From Planctomycetales bacterium (GTDB lineage: Bacteria > Planctomycetota > Planctomycetia > Pirellulales > S012-138), in contig WFOE01000240.1 in assembly GCA_015488215.1 (NCBI GenBank), forward strand, positions 9-64,008: a stretch of 64,000 bases of DNA. The letters are read 5' to 3'. Shown piece by piece: positions 3,199 through 63,623 of the stretch; positions within the stretch are counted from its first letter, which is position 1; each line of letters starts with the position of its first letter. A model generated the notes under the pieces. That model saw only the letters and a program-made list of their open reading frames with translations, did not search any database and was not told where the DNA came from. A program made the translations under genes and the position numbers.

Positions 3199-4508
3199 CC
3201 CCGCGGGAAATCGTCGCCCACCTGGATCGTTACATCGTGGGCCAGCACGAGGCCAAGCGGGCCGTGGCCGTGGCGGTGCGCAACCGCTGGCGGCGGCAAC
3301 AACTGCCCGAGGACATCCGCCAGGAAGTTTCGCCGAAGAACATTCTCATGATTGGGCCCACCGGGGTGGGCAAGACCGAAATCGCCCGCCGCCTGGCCCG
3401 GCTCACCGGCGCGCCGTTCGTCAAGGTCGAAGCCACCAAGTTCACCGAGGTGGGCTACTACGGGCGCGACGTGGAGAGCATCGTCCGCGAGCTGGTCGAA
3501 AACGCCATCTCGCTGGTGCGGGAACAAGAACGCCGCCGCCTGGAACCGGAAGTCAACCGGCGCGTGGAAGAACGGCTGCTGGAGCTGCTGTGCCCCGAGC
3601 CCCCTTATGCCGAGGAAGAAGAAGACTTCCAGCGCCACGAGCGGAACCGCCAGCGGATGCAGCAGATGCTCCGCGACGGCAAGCTGGAAGACCGCAAGGT
3701 GGAAATCACCCTGCACCAGAAGGCCATGCCGATGATGGTTACCGGCATGGGCATGGAACAACTGGACATGGACCTGAGCGAGTTGTTTGAAAAACTCATG
3801 CCCGGGCGCACCACTCGGCGCGAAGTAACGGTCAAGGAAGCCCGCAAACTGCTGTTCGAGGAGGAACTGGACCAGCTTATCAACAAGGACGAAGTGCATC
3901 AGAAAGCGATCCAACTGGCCGAAGACCTGGGCATCGTCTTCCTGGACGAGATTGACAAGATCGTGGCCAGCGACAGTCGCGGGCCGGATGTTTCCCGCCA
4001 GGGCGTGCAGCGGGACCTGTTGCCCATCGTCGAAGGCACCACCGTCAACACCCGTTACGGCCACGTGCGGACCGACCACATTCTGTTCATCGCCGCCGGG
4101 GCGTTCCACCGCACCAGCCCCAGCGAGCTGATGCCCGAGCTGCAAGGCCGCTTCCCCATCCGCGTAGAGTTGAGCGACCTGACCCGGGAGGACTTCATCC
4201 GTATCCTGACCGAACCCCAAAGTGCTCTGACGCGACAATACCAGGCGCTGCTTTCCACCGAAGGAGTCACGGTCAAGTTCACCCAGGACGCCATCGAGGA
4301 ACTGGCCGACTATGCCTATCGGGTCAACCAGAAAACGCAAAACATCGGCGCCCGGCGTCTCTACACCATCATGGAACGGCTGCTGGAGGAGCTGAGTTTC
4401 GAAGCCTCGGAAATGTCCGGCACCACGGTCCAGATCAACGCCGCCTACGTGAAACAACGGCTGGACGAAGTGGCCCAGGACGAAGACCTGAGCAAGTTCA
4501 TCCTGTAG
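3186..4508 (+). CDS. hslU: ATP-dependent protease ATPase subunit HslU
   Basis: 440 aa with a GTG start. It has Walker [27 protein letters not shown], and the I-domain insertion typical of HslU. Confidence 0.95.
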
Positions 4509-4874
4509 TGCGGCTTGCGGCTTGCGCCGTGCGCCTTGCGCCAAGGAGCTTCCGCTCCGAAGGGCGTGGGGGCTTGGAGGCTTGGGGGGATGAGGCAGGT
4601 GCTTACGCACCGGGCGAGAATAAAAGCTGATCCTTGGAAACAGCGAGCCGGGGACGTCAGTCCCCGGAGAAGAATGGCAAACAAGCGCTGGTTCTCGGGC
4701 TGCTCCGCGAGTTCGCACTCGCGGCTCGCTGGATACGCGACAACGTGCTAACACTCGCAACCGGCGAGCCACTGGCTTCACTCGGCGTGGAGACTTGGAG
4801 ACGTGCGGGCTTGGGGGGAGAGCTACCGCTCCGGGCGAGAATAGGTGCTAACCGTAGAATCGGCGAGCCGCTGG
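4509..4874 (+). repeat. Mosaic hairpin-module repeat locus B, between convergent hslU and the rrf2-like gene
   Basis: Contains GGCTTGCGGCTTGCGCCGTGCGCCTTGCGCCAAGGAGCTTCCGCTCC (4510-4558), a G-tract module (4562-4594), GGTGC-TTAC-GCACC (4598-4611) and CCGGGGAC-GTCA-GTCCCCGG (4648-4667). It also has CGCGAGT-TCGC-ACTCGCG (about 4706-4723), GAGAGCTACCGCTCC (about 4818-4832) and three GGCGAGCC anchors. Confidence 0.85.
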
Positions 4875-55849: not shown

Positions 55850-56773
55850 TCAGGCGAACGCTTCCCGAAGCTGCTGCATCCATTTCTTGCAGGCGGCCCG
55901 CGGATCGTCGCGTTCTTCATACTCCAACACGATGTAGCCGCGGTAGCCGGCTTGGCGCAGGATTCGGGCCAGGCGGTCGAAATCGCCCGGCACGCGTTTG
56001 CGTCCTGCGTAGGTCAGCGACACCTTCACCTGCACGTTCACGGCGTAGGGGGCCATGCGGGCCATGTCGTGGTAAGCTTCTTCCACGCTGGGGCTGCCGT
56101 GCAGGTTGCCCGTGTCCAGGTTCACGCCTAGCCAGGGGCTTTTCACGTCCCGCACCAGGGCCAGCAGCCCGTCGATCTTCGTGGTCAAACCGCCGTGATT
56201 CTCCAGAGCCAGAAACACGCCATGCTCCCCAGCGTACTGGCAACATTCTTCCATGGCCTGGACGGCCAGGCGATGGGCTTCCTGGACCGACTGGCCGTTG
56301 CGCGGCCGGCCCGAGAAAATCCGAATCACCGGTGCCCCCATCGCCGCCGCGTGGTCGATCCAGGTTTTGACCATCTGAATCTGCCGCTGGCGTTGCGGGC
56401 CGGGCGGGTAGCAAAAATCGTTGCCCACGGCCGTGCCGGAGATGTCCAGCCCCAGCGTGAAGCTCAAGAACTTCAGCCGGTTCAGGTACTCCGGCGTAAC
56501 CTGCTTGGGAAAGTAGTACGAGGTCAGCTCGGTCCCTTCCAGTTGAAGCTGGGCGCAGTACCGGATGAAATCTTCCAGGGTCCACTCGGGCCGCTTGCCG
56601 GTAAGCAAGCTGCGGAACCCATAGGCGGCCAGCGAGAACTTGAACTTGGGCTGGCCGGGCCGCTGGATAGGTTCTCGGGCGGCCAGCCGGCCGGGCAGCA
56701 TGTGCCAACTGCCGGCGGCCATTCCGGCGGCAAGACCCAGATGCAGAAAACGACGGCGACTTACGACTTTCAT
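55850..56773 (-). CDS. Tat-exported sugar phosphate isomerase/epimerase (xylose isomerase-like TIM barrel)
   Basis: Has a twin-arginine signal MKVVSRRRFLHLGLAAGMAAGS and TIM-barrel motifs (GTELTSYYF, IRIFSGRP, LALENHGG, VNLDTGN). Confidence 0.85.
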   Translation of the reverse strand: MKVVSRRRFLHLGLAAGMAAGSWHMLPGRLAAREPIQRPGQPKFKFSLAAYGFRSLLTGKRPEWTLEDFIRYCAQLQLEGTELTSYYFPKQVTPEYLNRLKFLSFTLGLDISGTAVGNDFCYPPGPQRQRQIQMVKTWIDHAAAMGAPVIRIFSGRPRNGQSVQEAHRLAVQAMEECCQYAGEHGVFLALENHGGLTTKIDGLLALVRDVKSPWLGVNLDTGNLHGSPSVEEAYHDMARMAPYAVNVQVKVSLTYAGRKRVPGDFDRLARILRQAGYRGYIVLEYEERDDPRAACKKWMQQLREAFA

Positions 56774-56909: not shown

Positions 56910-57971
56910 CTACTCCGCGGCAGGAACGGGGCAGTTGCCGGTGAAACACTCCGCGGGCACGAACGCCAGCAGCCCGGCAAGCATCAGCAGGCTGTAGGTC
57001 ACCAGTCCCGTGGCCAGTGCGATGGAAATCCAGAACAACATGGCCAGCGCGAGCATCAGACCCCGCATCGGCCGCACCCACACCAGCACCACGAACGCCA
57101 TCTGGAACAGAATGACAAAGTAGGTCCACAGGTCCATCAGCAGCGGATGATGAGCCAGCCAGTCGGCCGAAACCAGGGCCGTTTCGGGCCGGGCCACAAT
57201 CCACCACATTGCCTCGCCGGTCCACCAGACCATGCCCCCGGTTCCGCCGCCGCTGAGCTGGACCAGCACGGTCAACGCGTAGAGGACCGTCAGGTGAACC
57301 TGGATCAACCGCAATGTGACGGTGGCCCCCCAGCGTTTCGGCGGCATTGGAGCCGACGAGGGTTCCGCCGACTGCTTACGCCCAGCCAGCCAGCTATCCA
57401 CGCTCCACGCGACCCCGCAGGGCGAAAGGGCCAGATAGAACATCAGCATGGCCAGCACCGGCTCCAGTTGGGCGTTGAGCAGCGGGGCCCGATGCACGTA
57501 AGCCAGAACAACCACCAAGGCAAGCACGCTCGTCCAGCGCGTCTTCCAGCCCAGGATGAACAGCACCAGCACCAGCAGCCCGGCTGCGTGCATCAGCCAC
57601 AGTTCCCAATCGCTGCTTGCATAAGTGAGATAGGAAAGGCGATACAACGGGGGGAAGGGCCGTTGGGCCACATCGTCGAACCGGTAGAGCGTCTCACCCA
57701 GTGGAAACCGGGCGTCGAGCCACTGTCCCACCGGGTCGGCCTGGCCGGCGCCTGCCGGGGGGGCAAACCATCCTTCGGGGCCGAACCAGCGCGTCAGGTC
57801 CGGGCTGAACGAGGCGACGTAATACAGGGCGAGCAAGCCCACGGCAATCCGCAGTGCCACTAGCGGCAGGGGACTGGAAGGCTGGTACCAGAAACGGTTC
57901 CAGCCCTGACCGACCGCCAGGGACATCTGCTGAAAATAATCGGTAACGCCGCGGATGAGCAAACGAAGCAT
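56910..57971 (-). CDS. HTTM-domain polytopic membrane protein (vitamin K gamma-carboxylase-like / SdpB-like)
   Basis: LVALRIAVGLLALYY, WLMHAAGLLVLVLFILGWKTRWTSVLALVVVLAYV and LAMLMFYLALSPCGVAWSVD parallel the conserved HTTM blocks (the ...WSVD block in particular). The start is placed at ATG 57971. The ORF-track extension to 58454 overlaps the upstream gene. Confidence 0.75.
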   Translation of the reverse strand: MLRLLIRGVTDYFQQMSLAVGQGWNRFWYQPSSPLPLVALRIAVGLLALYYVASFSPDLTRWFGPEGWFAPPAGAGQADPVGQWLDARFPLGETLYRFDDVAQRPFPPLYRLSYLTYASSDWELWLMHAAGLLVLVLFILGWKTRWTSVLALVVVLAYVHRAPLLNAQLEPVLAMLMFYLALSPCGVAWSVDSWLAGRKQSAEPSSAPMPPKRWGATVTLRLIQVHLTVLYALTVLVQLSGGGTGGMVWWTGEAMWWIVARPETALVSADWLAHHPLLMDLWTYFVILFQMAFVVLVWVRPMRGLMLALAMLFWISIALATGLVTYSLLMLAGLLAFVPAECFTGNCPVPAAE

Positions 57972-57979
57972 CGTCGAGG

Positions 57980-58753
57980 TTACGGTTGGGAGTTCGCGTT
58001 GGATCCAGGACTGCCGGAGCGCGTTCCGGAAGCCCGATTGACCGGGCCGGAGCTTTCCGCCTGGCTTTCCAGTTTCAGCAGCCGCACCTGATCCCCTTCG
58101 ACCCAGATCCGCGCTTGATAGACCGTAACCCAGCGGGAATCGTGGTACGGGTCGTTCAGCGTCGGATCGTTGCTGCGTGCTTCTTCCGGGGCGCGAAGCA
58201 ACAGGCGGCGGCATTCCAGCGTGGCCCGCTGCATACCCGCTTCGCGGAGCAACCCTCGGCCCAAAGCGGCTGGCAGCACGTTTTCGGTGTCTTCGATTCC
58301 GGCCAGCCGAGCCATTTCCCAGGCGATCATCTGGTAGCGACGGTAGCGCAACCCCACTGCTCCCGGGGGCGGCCACTGCACCTGCCTGCCCTGTTCGTCG
58401 CGAAGGACGAGGAAGTGGTCCACGTCTAGCGCGTCGCCCTGGGTCAGATGCCACAGCGCGCGGCGGCTTTTGGGCAGCACCCGGGGACTGGGATACAGCT
58501 CGCCGCTAGGGAGCCGCACGATTCCCGAATCGGGGGCCACGTCCATCCCCAACAGTTGAAGATAAAAGCCGGGAAAACGCCGCAGCGCCTGCCGCATGGG
58601 GGAACTGAGTCGCCACATGGTCCAGCTCAACCCCAGGGAAAACAAGTGGGCAAACAGCAGGAAACTGACCAGCGTGCGCATCTGGGCCGAAGGGCCCGCG
58701 GGCTCCTGTCCGGCTTCCGGAGGCAACGGTTCTGCGCGTTGGGAAGACGGCAT
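57980..58753 (-). CDS. Hypothetical single-pass membrane protein (partner of the HTTM gene)
   Basis: 257 aa from ATG 58753 with one TM helix (MRTLVSFLLFAHLFSLGLSWTMW). It ends 8 nt before the HTTM start, so it is probably co-transcribed. I recognise no family. Confidence 0.6.
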   Translation of the reverse strand: MPSSQRAEPLPPEAGQEPAGPSAQMRTLVSFLLFAHLFSLGLSWTMWRLSSPMRQALRRFPGFYLQLLGMDVAPDSGIVRLPSGELYPSPRVLPKSRRALWHLTQGDALDVDHFLVLRDEQGRQVQWPPPGAVGLRYRRYQMIAWEMARLAGIEDTENVLPAALGRGLLREAGMQRATLECRRLLLRAPEEARSNDPTLNDPYHDSRWVTVYQARIWVEGDQVRLLKLESQAESSGPVNRASGTRSGSPGSNANSQP

Positions 58754-58845
58754 GGAGTAGTCACCCCCGCTGGGGAAGGAGGAACGGAACAAGTTGCCGT
58801 ACTAGTGTAGCACTTTTCTCCAGGAACGAGGTTCCGGCGGCGCAT

Positions 58846-58892
58846 GAAAAAACCGGACCCGACAACAGAAAACCATTGTCTCGCGGTCCGGT
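58846..58892 (-). terminator. Rho-independent terminator after the Cys-His repeat gene
   Basis: The minus-strand hairpin is ACCGGACC-GCGAGACAA-tggttttc-TGTTGTCG-GGTCCGGT. The outer 8-bp stem pairs 58852-58859 with 58885-58892, and there is an inner GACAA/TTGTC stem. It is followed by TTTTT(T)C. Confidence 0.8.
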
Positions 58893-58938
58893 TGGTTTCT
58901 GGAGAAAACCGGTTGCCGAAGCCTCGGCCTGTTTCCGG

Positions 58939-59391
58939 TTAGGCGGCCTTCTTTTGGGCCTTTTTGGGAGCAGCCTTCTTCTTGGGAGCCGGAGCAGCTT
59001 CCTTGGCCGCGCCATGGCAGCTACTGGCATGGCAGCTACTGGCGTGGCAACTGCTGTGGCAGCCGTGGCAGCGGCGGAACAGCCGCAGACCGTGGCACCG
59101 GCGAGCATGGCAACCGTGGCACCGACGACGGGCATGGCAGCTACTGGCATGGCAACTGCTGTGGCAGCCGTGGCAGCGGCGGAACAGCCGCAGGCCATGG
59201 CACCGGCGAGCATGGCAACCGTGGCAAGCAGCATCACCATGGCAAGCGGCAGCGCCGTGACAGGCATCGCCATGACAAGCATGGCAGCCGTGACAGTGTC
59301 CCGCTTGCACCGTTTCGGTGGTCCCTTGCACCATGGCCAGGCCGACCACGGCAACAAACGCGGCAATCCCCATCAAAAGCACTCGGTTCAT
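58939..59391 (-). CDS. Small secreted Cys-His repeat protein (20 CH dipeptides, 6 CXXCH) with a Lys/Ala/Pro tail
   Basis: ATG 59391 is preceded by GAGGAGGA 7 nt upstream. The signal peptide is MNRVLLMGIAAFVAVVGLAMVQGTTETVQA. The core is GHCHGCHACHGDACHGAAACHGDAACHGCHARRCHGLRLFRRCHGCHSSCHASSCHARRRCHGCHARRCHGLRLFRRCHGCHSSCHASSCHASSCHG and the tail is AAKEAAPAPKKKAAPKKAQKKAA. Codons are GC3-rich (TGC CAC GGC), consistent with the host. Confidence 0.7.
   Translation of the reverse strand: MNRVLLMGIAAFVAVVGLAMVQGTTETVQAGHCHGCHACHGDACHGAAACHGDAACHGCHARRCHGLRLFRRCHGCHSSCHASSCHARRRCHGCHARRCHGLRLFRRCHGCHSSCHASSCHASSCHGAAKEAAPAPKKKAAPKKAQKKAA
59022..59226 (-). repeat. 105-bp (35-aa) tandem duplication inside the Cys-His repeat gene
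   Basis: GGCAACTGCTGTGGCAGCCGTGGCAGCGGCGGAACAGCCGCAG(A/G)CC(G/A)TGGCACCGGCGAGCATGGCAACCGTGGCA occurs from 59046 and again from 59151. GCATGGCAGCTACTGGCAT flanks recur at about 59030 and 59132. Confidence 0.9.
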
Positions 59392-59514
59392 CCCAACATC
59401 CTCCTCTGTAAACTGAGGTGCCGCCAAGTTCTCTCGGGCATTCACCCCCTCGCTCGGCGGCTGGAAAAGCGCGGGGGAACGTCACTCGTACTGCACACCC
59501 AGTTGCTGGCCCGA

Positions 59515-59545
59515 GTAAGCTATCTGTCAAAATAGAATAGCTTAC
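59515..59545. promoter_or_regulatory. Perfect 9-13-9 inverted repeat in an AT-rich divergent intergenic region (candidate operator)
   Basis: GTAAGCTAT (59515-59523), a 13-nt spacer, then ATAGCTTAC (59537-59545). The spacer contains TTGACA on the minus strand (59525-59530). It lies about 125-155 nt upstream of the Cys-His gene ATG and about 310 nt upstream of the divergent DUF1614-like gene. Confidence 0.45.
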
Positions 59546-59851
59546 CAAACTGGGGTAAAGGGGAAATCTAGCGGCCAACATAACAACCGCGCAGACGATG
59601 TCAAGCAGAAAAGAGAAAATTGGGAAAGAGAGGGGGCTTTTGCGGCTCTTGGGGCGATTTTCCCCTTCGCTCAACTCTTTGGGAACCTGCCGGGACGGAG
59701 CCTCTGAGAAGCGGGGCCCCCAAACGGCTTGCCGAGTCCAAGTGCTGGTCCCGACCGGAACATTTGGCTACAACAGCAGGCGTTGGTGCGGCAGTACGAT
59801 GCCTGCCGGACCATTGGCTCCTTCGTTGAAAAGGCCACCGGAAACCCCGTC

Positions 59852-60583
59852 ATGTCGCAGCCCCCTCTTGCGCCGCGGCCCCCATTGGCCGGATGCCTGG
59901 TGCCGGCTCTGATTCTGCTGCTCCTGTGCCTGATCCCGGTTTATTTTCTGCGGTTCATCGAAACGGCCCTGGGACACCTGCACCTGACCCCCACTCAGGC
60001 GGCCCTGGCCATGTTCGGCATCCTCTTCGGCAGCCTGATTAACATCCCCGTGTACCGCATTCCCCGGGACGAGGAAGTCACCTACGTCTGGGATCCCTGG
60101 GGGCTGAGCCAGATGGTGTTTCCCCAGGTGCCGATTCGTCGCGAGACAATCATCGCGGTAAACGTGGGCGGATGCGTCATTCCGGTGCTGGTGGCCATCT
60201 GGCAGATTCGCTTCATCGTGGGGGCAGGCCCCTGGCCCGTCGCGGCACTGCTGGTAGCCATGGGAGCCAACATTGCGTTGAGCTACCGGATGGCTCGTCC
60301 CATGCCGGGAATCGGCATTGTGATGCCCGCCTGGGTGGCTCCGCTGACAGCCATCGGCACCACGTGCCTTTTGCTTTCCGAGCCGCAGTACGATGCGATA
60401 CGAGCACCGGTGGCTTTCGTCGCCGGGATTACCGGTCCGCTCGTGGGGGCCGACCTGCTCCACTTGCGCCGCGTGCTGCGGCTGCCGGTGGGTATGCTTT
60501 CCATCGGCGGGGCCGGCACACTGGACGGGATTGTGCTTTCGGGGCTGCTGGCTGCCCTGGTCTGCGGCTGGATGGCCAGCTAA
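59852..60583 (+). CDS. Polytopic membrane protein (DUF1614-like)
   Basis: 243 aa from ATG 59852 with about 6 hydrophobic helices. NVGGCVIPVLVAIWQ and GIVMPAWVAPLTAIG resemble my recollection of DUF1614. Confidence 0.55.
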   Translation: MSQPPLAPRPPLAGCLVPALILLLLCLIPVYFLRFIETALGHLHLTPTQAALAMFGILFGSLINIPVYRIPRDEEVTYVWDPWGLSQMVFPQVPIRRETIIAVNVGGCVIPVLVAIWQIRFIVGAGPWPVAALLVAMGANIALSYRMARPMPGIGIVMPAWVAPLTAIGTTCLLLSEPQYDAIRAPVAFVAGITGPLVGADLLHLRRVLRLPVGMLSIGGAGTLDGIVLSGLLAALVCGWMAS

Positions 60584-60917
60584 GCGGGGTGGGTTTGCTT
60601 GCGGCCCTGGCCACATCTCAGGACGCCGTGGCCCTCCACAGGAAAATGTGCTGGTCGGGCTTGGCACGGGCTGCTGATTCGGTACATGCCGTCGATGGAC
60701 ACAAGCTGTTGAGACGGATTCCGCCGTCAGACGGCCATGCTGCTGAAATGGATTTTCAACAAGGCTCAGTTGCCCCAATGTTGACCAAATGAAGCGGTTG
60801 GGTTGAGTATAAAAAATCCGCTTTTTTCCCTGGTTTTGAGCAATTTTTCTCTTGCAATCTTGCCCGAATCGAGAAAAAAAGAAAATGCCAGGGGTTCTAA
60901 CAGAGGAGGTCGCAGCG

Positions 60918-63623
60918 ATGAATCGCACCAGCCAGGGGTTCTTCTCTTCGTTACTGCGCTTCTTATGCAAAAAGAATAGCCCGGCCGCTGGTTCGTTGCA
61001 GATCGAGGCATTGGAAGGACGCCTGATGCTTGACGTCGGGCTGTTCCCCTCTCTGGATCAAAACACGCTGGAGCAGACAATCCAGCAACTGCCCGACCAG
61101 CCGGTACCGGACGATCCCGCGCCAGGATTGGGCTTGGGACAGTTTCGGGCGCTTTCGGCAAGCAGTCCTGGCACCTGGTCTGGGACCAGTTCGGGACAGG
61201 GCAGCTCGAGCCAGGATTCGTTGCACGACCACGATGACTTCGACGACGATGACGACCACACGGACGTCTATAACGTCAACGTGCCGGTGACCAACAATCC
61301 GGTCGGCCCGTTGAACACGTACCTGGTGTCCACCGATGACCCGGGCAGGCTCACGTTGAGCAACGGCGTGGTGGTCGATTACGACGATTCGGACATTCTG
61401 GCCCTGGTGGTGGACAGCCGAGGCCAGTTGGTCAACGCAGGCATTTACTTCGACGGCAGCGACGTCGGGCTGACCACCGGCAAGGAAGACATCAAAGGAT
61501 TTACCCTGGACGACCAGGGGAATATTTACATCACGCTCAAGGGCAAGGGACTCGTCAACACGCCCCAAGGCAATCTGGTCGTCGGCGCCAACGACATTCT
61601 CAAGTTCACGCCCACTTCGCTGGGAACCACTACGGTCGGCACCTGGGACTGGTACTTCGACGGTAGCGACGTCGGGCTGTTCGGCAGCGACGAGCGGATC
61701 AGCGGCCTGAGCTTCCTTTCCAACGGCGACTTGCTCCTGACGCTACACGAACGCGGCAACGTACCGGGACTGGGGAGCGTCCAGGCCGGCGACGTGCTCC
61801 GCTTCCGCTTTACTACCCAAGGGTTCGGCACCACCGCCGGAACCTGGAGCCAGTGGTTGAGCGGTGCCACGCTGGGGCTGACCGGGCATGATCCCGAAAT
61901 GAGTGCCCTTTGGGTTTCCGCCGACGGGAACCGCGTCGGCTTTTCGGCCGAAGACGACTACCGCCACGGCAACTGGCGCGCTCAGGACGAAGACCTGCTG
62001 CTGTACAACCGCTCCACCGGAGCGGTTTCGGTGTTGCTGAACACCACGCGGCTGGGACTGGGCCACCAGGACGTCGACGGCCTCCATATCCTCAGCGGCG
62101 ACGCTTTGGCTGCCCTGGGCAACACGGGCAGCGGGGGTTCGACCGGAACAGGAAGCGGCAGTGGCAGCGGCAGCGGATCAGGAAGCGGCAGCGGCTCCGG
62201 CGGGGGTACCGGCAGTGGAAGCGGCTCGGGCAGCGGCAATTCCAACACGCCCACGCCCAACGGACCGCTGACGACTTACCTGCTTTCCACCGACGATCCT
62301 GGTGCCCTCCGGCTGCCGGACGGTTCCGTGTTCACTTACGACGATTCGGACATCATCGCCCTGGTGGTGGACAGCACCGGCCAGTTAATTTCGGCCGGGA
62401 TGTATTTCGACGGCAGCGACGTCGGGCTGACTACCAACAACGAAGACATCAAAGCCTTTGCCTTGGACGCCCAGGGGAACATCTACATCACGCTCAAAGG
62501 CAAGGGACTGGTCAACACGCCCCAGGGCAACCTGGTCGTCGGCGTCAACGACATTCTGAAGTTCACGCCCACTTCGCTGGGAACCACTACGGCCGGCACT
62601 TGGGACTGGTTCTTCGACGGCAGCGACGTGGGCCTGTTCGGCAGCGACGAGCGGATCGAGGGCCTGAGCTTCCTGCCCAACGGCGACCTGCTCCTCTCGA
62701 TCCACGAGCGGGGCAACGTACCCGGGGTGGGCAGCGTCCAGGCCGGCGACCTGTTGCAGTTCCACTTCACCACCCAGGGCTTCGGCACCACGGCCGGAAC
62801 TTGGTCGCGGTGGCTCGGCGCCTCGACGCTGGGGTTTGGTCCCTCGGAAGCTGAGCTAAACGCGCTGTGGATTTCCGGCGACGCTAACCGGGTGGCCTTC
62901 TCGGCCGACGACGACTATCGCCACGGCGGCTGGCGGGCCCAGGACGAAGACCTGCTGATGTACAACCGCTCCACCGGAGCCGTTTCCGTGTTGTTGAACA
63001 CCACGGCCATGGGCATGCGGAGCCAGGATGTGGATGGACTGCACATCCTCAGCGGCGACGCCTTGGCCGGCATCGGCAACAGCAGTGGTAGCGGAGGGAC
63101 CAGCAAAGCCTTGTGGTTATTCGCCGCCCGAAGCCTCGATCCTGCCGGCAAGCAGACGGATCGGGAAGTGCCGGATCCCCGCGATCCCGACCTCCGTTCT
63201 TCGGCCGACGACCTGCTGCCGCAGATCGACGACGGCCTGCTGGATGACCACCCCACCCAGCAGACCAGTCCGTTAACCGGCATGTTGGACGACCAGCACC
63301 CAACCAGCAGCGACCTGCTGCCGCAGATCGACGACAGTCTGCTGGATGACCACCCCACCCAGCAGACAAACAACCTGGCCGACGATAGGGACGGCCAGCA
63401 CACTTGGGCACCAGACGATCAGCCGAGCGGAGAGCACACCTCTCTCTTCGACGACGACCAGCAGACGCATTCTTCTCATCCGTCTGGTGACGATTCCCTG
63501 TGGCGAACCGACGACGATTCGCTTCGCCGTTTGGGGCAAGCCACGGACGATGTGTTGGCCGGCATCGGTGAGCTGGATTATTACGAAATCCTGGCCCGGC
63601 GCATCTCCGCCCAGTTGCGTTGA
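60918..63623 (+). CDS. Large secreted repeat protein (two 319-aa propeller-like units, a (GS)n linker, an acidic D/Q-rich tail)
   Basis: GAGGAGG lies 8 nt upstream of ATG 60918. The N-terminus is MNRTSQGFFSSLLRFLCKKNSPAAGSLQIEALEGRLMLDV. The FDGSDVGL motif recurs four times. Near-identical halves start at GPLNTYLVSTDDPG and GPLTTYLLSTDDPG. The C-terminal DLLPQIDD(G/S)LLDDHPTQQT occurs twice. Confidence 0.85.
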   Translation: MNRTSQGFFSSLLRFLCKKNSPAAGSLQIEALEGRLMLDVGLFPSLDQNTLEQTIQQLPDQPVPDDPAPGLGLGQFRALSASSPGTWSGTSSGQGSSSQDSLHDHDDFDDDDDHTDVYNVNVPVTNNPVGPLNTYLVSTDDPGRLTLSNGVVVDYDDSDILALVVDSRGQLVNAGIYFDGSDVGLTTGKEDIKGFTLDDQGNIYITLKGKGLVNTPQGNLVVGANDILKFTPTSLGTTTVGTWDWYFDGSDVGLFGSDERISGLSFLSNGDLLLTLHERGNVPGLGSVQAGDVLRFRFTTQGFGTTAGTWSQWLSGATLGLTGHDPEMSALWVSADGNRVGFSAEDDYRHGNWRAQDEDLLLYNRSTGAVSVLLNTTRLGLGHQDVDGLHILSGDALAALGNTGSGGSTGTGSGSGSGSGSGSGSGSGGGTGSGSGSGSGNSNTPTPNGPLTTYLLSTDDPGALRLPDGSVFTYDDSDIIALVVDSTGQLISAGMYFDGSDVGLTTNNEDIKAFALDAQGNIYITLKGKGLVNTPQGNLVVGVNDILKFTPTSLGTTTAGTWDWFFDGSDVGLFGSDERIEGLSFLPNGDLLLSIHERGNVPGVGSVQAGDLLQFHFTTQGFGTTAGTWSRWLGASTLGFGPSEAELNALWISGDANRVAFSADDDYRHGGWRAQDEDLLMYNRSTGAVSVLLNTTAMGMRSQDVDGLHILSGDALAGIGNSSGSGGTSKALWLFAARSLDPAGKQTDREVPDPRDPDLRSSADDLLPQIDDGLLDDHPTQQTSPLTGMLDDQHPTSSDLLPQIDDSLLDDHPTQQTNNLADDRDGQHTWAPDDQPSGEHTSLFDDDQQTHSSHPSGDDSLWRTDDDSLRRLGQATDDVLAGIGELDYYEILARRISAQLR
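61305..63077 (+). repeat. 957-bp internal tandem duplication (about 90% nt identity by eye) including a (GGC/AGC)n Gly-Ser microsatellite at about 62121-62238
   Basis: Unit 1 starts at 61305 and unit 2 at 62262, a period of 957 nt or 319 codons. Long identical runs include ATCACGCTCAA.GGCAAGGGACT.GTCAACACGCCCCA.GGCAA.CTGGTCGTCGGCG.CAACGACATTCT.AAGTTCACGCCCACTTCGCTGGGAACCACTACGG. Confidence 0.9.

Follow-up and report, generated by a model that had tools for sequence, protein, structure and literature searches.

A GGCX-like membrane pair and a hypervariable secreted protein: evidence for a conserved gene cassette in Planctomycetota

The locus considered here lies in a stretch of 64,000 nucleotides (nt) from a Planctomycetales bacterium (GenBank assembly GCA_015488215.1, contig WFOE01000240.1, positions 9 to 64,008 of the forward strand), which as a whole is called the window below, and comprises, all on the minus strand, a gene for a small Cys/His-rich protein, a hairpin followed by a run of six T (T6), a gene for a single-pass membrane protein of 257 amino acids (aa), termed the partner, and a gene for an HTTM-like polytopic protein. 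An initial sequence-only reading likened this order to that of the SdpABC peptide maturation systems, allowing that the adjacency could equally be coincidental. One question then is whether these genes are neighbours by accident or whether the two membrane proteins act on the small one. We propose that the three genes constitute a conserved Planctomycetota module, in which a split pair resembling the vitamin K-dependent gamma-carboxylase, GGCX, acts on a hypervariable secreted client, a reading to which we would give a little better than an even chance; that the small protein and the membrane pair work together is very probable.

The evidence for this proposal is primarily the recurrence of the arrangement. 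A scan of one genome per species, seeded with the HTTM-like protein, yielded 57 loci, whose six-frame open reading frames (ORFs) were searched with iterated hidden Markov models; all the relatives are metagenome-assembled genomes or contigs with mechanically called ORFs, and the counts of 'informative' loci given here represent our own reading of the tables. The partner gene lies directly 5' of the HTTM gene and on the same strand in 53 of the 57 loci, being missing only from the four most distant, and the junction is short, with 8 nt in the window and a 4-nt overlap in L116, L118, L119 and L120. HTTM and partner form an obligate pair, the genes of which are in most cases translationally coupled. 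A small ORF with the type of N-terminus found in the window protein (the MNR type) precedes the partner gene on the same strand in 32 loci in addition to the window, and other secreted low-complexity proteins rich in Gly, Ser, Cys and His are encoded upstream of the pair in 11 further loci; overall, a low-complexity secreted neighbour is found upstream in about 43 of the approximately 50 loci with room to look. When a strict low-complexity filter is applied, 19 loci have such ORFs within 2 kb upstream, and the remainder of all the flanks contains a single one. In the reverse search, for which metagenome contigs were scanned with the N-terminal pattern of the small protein, about 27 of some 34 informative loci proved to have the pair downstream, the HTTM gene being seen where the contig was long enough. 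The co-occurrence and synteny that the sequence-only reading had put forward for checking are thus borne out in both directions of search, and with the adjacency seen again in dozens of genomes of distant relationship, chance falls far short of explaining the arrangement, so that the coincidence which that reading had allowed for can be dismissed. The cassette combines genes for an HTTM protein, for a small partner and for a proposed client exported by Sec, as in the functional kind typified by SdpABC.

Whether the larger membrane protein merits the HTTM label is a separate issue. Pfam, including its PF05090 model, gave no match to the window protein even at E<=10, and among its 103 homologues, almost all from Planctomycetota, PF05090 is a precomputed assignment in 17. 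The label given by the earlier reading holds by profile and by fold: a profile of 47 family sequences matches human GGCX with E=6e-5 over 220 positions, and the blocks singled out at the outset as conserved, LRI..GLL and WSVD, align as 'LRIAVGLL' and 'WSVD' with 'FRFLFGFL' and 'WSVDG' of GGCX. The AlphaFold2 model of the protein (pLDDT 88.6, pTM 0.87) retrieves only GGCX chains from the PDB (E=2e-5, probability 1.0), and these constitute the top 16 matches, with TM-scores of 0.54-0.59 over approximately 330 columns. As modelled, the protein is a divergent member with the fold of the GGCX membrane domain. NCBIfam offered nothing beyond a sub-threshold match to the SdpB model TIGR04033, at 15.6 bits (E=0.009) relative to a cut-off of 178.4. 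In GGCX, Lys218 is the catalytic base that deprotonates vitamin K hydroquinone (bioRxiv 10.1101/2025.02.09.637231). The window protein has Gln238 at this position, and canonical vitamin K hydroquinone deprotonation is therefore doubtful for this copy; of 68 family members, 52 have Lys in the equivalent column, 15, the window among them, have Gln, and one has Met. A possible correspondence between Lys or Gln and the class of client was considered and abandoned: loci with Cys-free clients all have Lys, but both residues are found with Cys-rich clients.

The partner is more elusive. Neither alone, nor in six distant relatives, nor as a 45-member alignment did it match any Pfam or NCBIfam model, including those for SdpA and DUF5819, so that by sequence it does not belong to a described partner family of this type; its profile matched no PDB sequence, and a Foldseek comparison of its model with the PDB returned no fold match (best E=0.25). 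Phmmer nevertheless found 201 clusters at E<=1e-3 among 1.84 billion representatives. The AlphaFold2 model, of moderate confidence only (pLDDT 70, core about 85), predicts a cytoplasmic N-terminus, one transmembrane (TM) helix at residues 23-47 and then a periplasmic alpha/beta domain. His36, within the TM helix, and Tyr64 are invariant and Arg139 nearly so; the invariant columns of the HTTM and partner alignments contain no Cys. A partner subfamily of the FFAPEP type accompanies Gly/Ser-rich clients, a correspondence that was set aside as inseparable from phylogeny.

The small protein of the window contains 20 Cys and 21 His residues in 150 aa and begins with a hydrophobic signal ending in an AxA↓G site; it reads MNRVLLMGIAAFVAVVGLAMVQGTTETVQA↓GHCHGCHACHG..., continuing into CH-rich repeats and a Lys-rich tail. 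A tandem duplication encodes a 35-aa unit (...RRCHGLRLFRRCHGCHSSCHASSCHA...), which shows that the body of the gene evolves by gain and loss of repeats; in close relatives, with HTTM identities of 75-77%, the orthologues retain both N-terminus and RRCHGLRLFRRCHGCH motif, and differ in their repeat insertions and deletions. The family N-terminus follows the pattern MNRxLxxGIAxFxAVVGxAxxxG...AxA↓GH(G)C. The 84 complete members have a median length of 135 aa and mature regions with 17.5% Cys, 18% Gly and 6% His, the Cys content varying from 9 to 27% across the family and the His residues forming clusters; 80 of the 84 have an AxA↓G-type site and 34 end in xSFRR. Residues 1-21 show a median pairwise identity of 67-71%, compared with 41-42% for HTTM and 27% for the partner, a conservation inflated by the choice of metagenome loci on their N-terminal pattern and still 67% in the HTTM-seeded subset. 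The client signal segment is the best-conserved stretch of the cassette. Precursors that are recognised typically join a conserved leader to a variable core, and the clients share the conserved segment and hypervariable body of precursors of ribosomally synthesised and post-translationally modified peptides (RiPPs); here, in contrast to the cytoplasmic leader of RiPP-like precursors, the conserved segment is a Sec signal sequence. The clients are not Glu-rich: Asp and Glu together account for a median of 5.3% of the mature region, and some members have neither there. Pfam and NCBIfam scans of the window protein found no match, and the TIGR03000 domain is absent from both this protein and the L004 copy by NCBIfam scan. 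A GLF-x-R recognition motif, represented twice in the window by LRLFRR and seen in many relatives, was dropped as a family-wide feature since it occurs in only 29 of the 84 members. The gene itself is easily overlooked: gene callers left it uncalled in L116 (1688-2740) and called an antisense ORF of 182 aa in its place in L117 (1967-2515), and mechanical ORF lists of the window contain long spurious antisense ORFs, for example at 58876..59535 (+).

With CHGCH and CHACH read as CXXCH, the window protein has six matches to this motif together with a Sec signal, and its close relatives have seven to nine, such that it might be taken for a small multihaem c-type cytochrome functionally unrelated to the pair. 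We regard this as highly improbable, given that CXXCH is absent from 36 of the 84 members, with a median of one, and from the next relative, L001; that the motifs overlap, in a low-complexity setting that lacks room for haem packing; and that the cytochrome models of Pfam and NCBIfam give no match. CXXCH was consequently rejected as a family trait.

In other clades different proteins take the place of the small one. In Isosphaeraceae (L032, L036, L038 and L046) proteins with GGGFLHHGGG repeats, with or without Cys, are encoded upstream of the pair, and in L037, L041, L042, L043, L048 and L055 the neighbours are Gly/Ser/Trp/His-rich proteins of 230-450 aa. Four of these proteins were scanned for TIGR03000, and those of L037, L041 and L055 lie above its 43.1-bit cut-off (E=7e-34 to 7e-44), that of L043 falling just under it (39.6 bits, E=4e-10). 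In the branch with a long partner (L049, L119 and L120) Cys/Gly-rich TIGR03000 proteins are encoded divergently upstream of the pair, and the L120 protein, which reads GHGCHGC...CHGCHGCHGGLFHGCHGCH, closely resembles the window protein. Since the upstream low-complexity genes differ by clade, the link follows a class of protein rather than one inherited gene. The TIGR03000 proteins of L120 (2466-3122, minus strand) and L119 (2804-3352, minus strand) both have a mature start of the GHGCHGC type and CH/CG repeats, as in the window family; the two groups may share an origin or a recognition feature.

The composition of the Cys/His-rich protein might suggest a functional link of another kind, in which the client would be a periplasmic thiol or metal buffer, similar to metallothionein, or a disulfide-cross-linked matrix protein of the envelope, and the pair a quinone-coupled oxidoreductase, likened to DsbB/VKOR, MauE and DoxX, that sets the thiol/disulfide or metal state. 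DoxX and MauE relatives are tied to thiol redox, planctomycete envelopes have been described as rich in cystine and proline, and L119 and L120 have TIGR03000 neighbours, rich in Gly, Tyr and Cys, that look like structural matrix proteins; the Cys content and His clusters of the mature regions point in the same direction. Moreover, a preprint reports HTTM-DCC fusions (bioRxiv 10.64898/2026.08.19.745780), which are echoed by an ORF for a DCC/DUF393-type thiol-disulfide oxidoreductase (DGVCNLC) upstream of the most distant HTTM relative (L057, 108-611). On the other hand, the clients are free of Cys in Isosphaeraceae and at several loci of the TIGR03000 type, no Cys is invariant in either membrane protein, and an Rfam scan around the small gene found no element, a metal-sensing riboswitch included. 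We therefore consider a redox or metal function unlikely.

The small gene also possesses a transcriptional signature of its own. Directly after it, in 32 of 33 loci, there is a GC-rich hairpin (stem of approximately 9-15 bp, -20 to -31 kcal/mol) followed by T4-8, whereas with the same scan the frequency fell to 7 of 33 in front of the small gene, to 2 of 26 past HTTM and to 16 of 165 (10%) in windows chosen at random, from which we conclude that the terminator is conserved and specific; its stem sequences differ between loci by compensatory changes. A simple terminator scanner missed the hairpin of the window because of its long loop, and direct folding recovered it. The strong hairpin and T-tract described from the sequence alone are real, and the order of structural gene, terminator and two membrane genes recognised at the same time is conserved in those 32 of 33 loci against the 10% background. 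A second regular neighbour, a lipoprotein gene encoding about 215 aa, lies directly 5' of the small gene and on the same strand in 58 loci, the pair-less ones included; the window and L001 lack it and both have a divergent DUF1614 gene upstream. Further upstream, 18 loci (for instance L061, 666-2150, and also L006 and L080) have a P-loop ATPase with sub-cut-off NCBIfam matches to the Sll1717 family and to 'DS41_1 anti-phage protein' (E=2e-29, 103 bits against 370). In L061 a second, unrelated Cys-rich lipoprotein-like ORF (MKRGIIALLGLVLLAGNTGCCGC...; 4171-4584, minus strand) is convergent to the orphan small gene.

How, then, might the products of the cassette cooperate? HTTM and partner would assemble in the cytoplasmic membrane into a 'split' complex resembling GGCX, the eight TM helices of the former and the single helix of the latter corresponding to the nine of GGCX (bioRxiv 10.1101/2025.02.09.637231), with the periplasmic domain of the partner in place of the luminal substrate-binding domain. 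The small Cys/His-rich protein would be the client, exported by Sec and held at the membrane by its conserved N-terminal hydrophobic segment, which the complex would recognise in a manner parallel to propeptide-directed docking by GGCX or to leader recognition in RiPP systems. Its low-complexity body would be modified or processed at the periplasmic face, and signal peptidase would then cut at AxA↓G. Because the small gene has a strong terminator of its own, the client would be produced at far higher levels than the two membrane proteins. Candidate chemistries include a quinol-driven base or oxidative reaction, such as carboxylation, cross-linking or thiol oxidation, and also maturation by proteolysis, as for SdpC. 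The Lys-to-Gln change, the Glu-poor clients and the lack of conserved Cys in the membrane proteins speak against a simple carboxylase or thiol oxidase. A more specific version, in which this two-subunit machine, widespread in Planctomycetota, recognises the signal or anchor segment of hypervariable Cys/Gly/His-rich secreted proteins, those with TIGR03000 included, and modifies them covalently at the periplasmic face in a menaquinol-driven reaction, for example carboxylation or cross-linking, is a tentative suggestion that we hold to be possible rather than probable. If it is true, bacterial HTTM enzymes would have in these proteins their first large family of natural protein substrates, and modification of the proteins would be a route to the cystine-rich proteinaceous envelope of Planctomycetota.

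A number of observations weigh against this proposal. A same-strand listing did not find a low-complexity gene upstream of the pair in L002, L026, L028, L039, L045, L049 and L050, and although L049 later showed a divergent one, six pair-bearing loci remain without it. Conversely, the small gene occurs without the pair downstream on at least five distinct contigs (L061, L071, L080, L092 and L101), all of which still carry the lipoprotein gene before it. To these must be added the bias in the N-terminal conservation, the variable residue in the Lys218 column and the existence of clients with few or no Glu residues. As the terminators are canonical and strong, partial read-through into the pair is an assumption, and in most relatives the small gene follows the lipoprotein gene with no terminator between them (hairpins before the small gene in only 7 of 33 loci); taken together, the strong terminator and the terminator-free lipoprotein junction imply that the small gene may end an upstream unit and that partner and HTTM may start another. 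Lastly, the enzyme-substrate relation between the pair and the small protein is one that we infer.

Another reading is that the association reflects shared descent only: one transcription unit would end, at its terminator, with the small gene, and partner-HTTM would be an unrelated unit that happens to have remained beside it in Pirellulales. The two units are indeed separated by strong terminators, pair-less copies of the small gene exist, and the linkage of this gene to the upstream lipoprotein gene is no less frequent than that to the pair. Yet the adjacency is kept at protein identities of 27-42%, outlasts the loss of the lipoprotein gene in the clade of the window, and recurs in other orders with non-homologous low-complexity clients, even in divergent orientation, while low-complexity ORFs are essentially absent from other flank positions. 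Descent without function is, in our estimation, quite unlikely, and a module of client and GGCX-like pair is the reading that we retain.

The features of the locus are collected in Table 1; the coordinates and the description of the elements in the sequence-only reading were correct, and no second copy of any cassette gene exists within the window. The promoter candidate lies about 190 nt 5' of the Cys/His gene, inside the 337-nt divergent intergenic region that this gene shares with the DUF1614 gene, and is the sole such site in 3.5 kb, shuffled sequences giving 0.5. The gene for a TIM-barrel protein, 136 nt downstream of the HTTM gene and on the same strand, has an orthologue (52-68% identity) immediately 3' of HTTM in 13 distant loci and also in the close relatives L115-L118, and is not universal; it may belong to the cassette as an accessory gene. 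This protein is better conserved than HTTM itself. The DUF1614 membrane protein gene (59729-60583, plus strand), divergent from the Cys/His gene, is the same neighbour in L116-L118. Beyond it a 923-aa ORF (60852-63623, plus strand) without a Pfam match contains two long internal repeats, each of some 330 aa, with a Gly-Ser/Gly-Thr run between them, and an acidic, repeat-rich C-terminus.

Table 1. Features of the cassette and its surroundings, with positions counted within the window or, for the lipoprotein examples, within the loci named
Feature	Position	Strand	Remarks
Sigma-70-like promoter candidate (TTGACA, 16 nt, TG-TATGTT)	59577..59604	-	Consensus match only
Cys/His gene, 150 aa, proposed client	58939..59391	-	ATG preceded by GGAGGA
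Signal or anchor segment, codons 1-30	59302..59391	-	Predicted signal-peptidase site VQA↓GH at its end
105-bp tandem duplication inside the Cys/His gene	59026..59226	-	1.9 copies, 96% identical
Intrinsic-terminator-like hairpin (CCGGACC...GGGTCCGG, inner stem), then T6	58846..58892	-	-23.3 kcal/mol
Partner gene, 257 aa	57980..58753	-	Start 92 nt past the hairpin
HTTM/GGCX-like gene, 353 aa, polytopic, ~8 TM helices	56910..57971	-	Start 8 nt past the partner stop
Xylose-isomerase-like TIM-barrel gene, twin-arginine signal, accessory neighbour	55850..56773	-	PF01261, E=1.7e-34
Lipoprotein gene, examples	L004 4002-4841; L071 716-1384; L080 1623-2297		No Pfam/NCBIfam match

To our knowledge, the only bacterial HTTM/GGCX-like proteins with genetic or biochemical support are SdpB, the linaridin proteins and MloH. 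In this context the cassette offers a candidate client family with many natural variants, an obligate partner family without a database model, and natural variation between Lys and Gln at the catalytic position of GGCX, which together make the question of HTTM function experimentally approachable. It further connects the TIGR03000 and low-complexity families found in Planctomycetota with a particular machine in the membrane, which may bear on the unusual envelope of these bacteria. A literature search found no paper on the partner family, the small-protein family or their arrangement, and a full-text search for TIGR03000, and for HTTM together with Planctomycetes, was likewise without result. 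Both the partner and the small-protein families are without a database model, and the latter is probably under-annotated in public databases.

Among the closest known systems are SdpABC and its paralogue YitPOM, in which the genes for a polytopic HTTM-superfamily protein and a small partner accompany that for a protein exported by Sec, and the latter, in the Sdp case, matures only with both: in Bacillus subtilis SdpA and SdpB are required to process SdpC (PMC6818787). The SdpABC-type reading from which we set out stands as far as this layout of HTTM protein, partner and client is concerned, and fails as an assignment to the Sdp system itself, the HTTM protein lying outside the SdpB family and the partner having no match to SdpA. 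The order here is client, terminator, partner and HTTM, whereas sdpA, sdpB and sdpC are read in that order in a single transcript; the client, of low complexity and rich in Cys, His and Gly, is unrelated to SdpC, whose precursor has a hydrophobic toxin segment, and immunity or regulator genes are absent. The precedent does invite the idea of an SDP-like toxin system, in which a Cys/Arg-rich cationic precursor of an antimicrobial peptide would be matured or released by the pair and would owe its hypervariability to an arms race. The conserved leader and the hypervariable, repeat-expanding, Arg-rich body would suit such a role, and the upstream lipoprotein could be an immunity factor. This lipoprotein is, however, missing from the window and L001; an SdpI-like immunity gene, an ATP-binding cassette exporter and a dedicated protease are all absent; the cassette is single-copy and vertically conserved across an order, unlike typical bacteriocin islands; and the related clients of other clades are long TIGR03000 domain proteins. 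A toxin thus appears improbable.

With GGCX the window protein shares the transmembrane fold and the R..Q, WSxD and W.G motifs, and the systems are alike in idea, in that a conserved N-terminal recognition segment is joined to secreted, Cys-rich, variable substrates. Conotoxin precursors, some of which are gamma-carboxylated, similarly combine a conserved signal with a hypervariable Cys-rich toxin. The fused luminal domain of GGCX is absent here, and a separate single-pass protein may replace it; Lys218 corresponds to Gln in the window and is variable in the family, and the clients are almost without Glu.

A comparable division into two proteins is found in the DUF5819-HTTM pairs, the predicted complexes of which, according to the available part of the preprint cited above (bioRxiv 10.64898/2026.08.19.745780), resemble the whole of GGCX, MloH being a fused carboxylase. 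In these pairs too a protein with an N-terminal TM helix and an extracytoplasmic domain is encoded beside HTTM. The present partner, in contrast, matches DUF5819 at no Pfam threshold, an adjacent client is not described for the DUF5819-HTTM pairs in that part of the text, and the substrate of MloH is there given as a polyketide-peptide intermediate rather than a protein.

Linaridin clusters likewise place an HTTM-type membrane protein beside a ribosomal precursor peptide, and deletion of the genes for the HTTM-type LinG/LinH blocked linaridin formation (bioRxiv 10.1101/2020.07.09.196543; PMC9927463). LinL, LinE, LinM and LinD are all absent from the cassette, the client of which is Sec-exported, Cys-rich and not Thr-rich, with about 120 aa in its mature form, and linaridin hosts are Actinobacteria, compared with Planctomycetota here. 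The window protein differs from the TIGR03000 (plancto_dom_1) proteins in having another signal peptide and no TIGR03000 domain; the two nevertheless have in common that they are secreted, that their N-terminal regions are of low complexity and rich in Gly, Ser, Cys, His and Tyr, and that they occupy the same position by partner-HTTM pairs.

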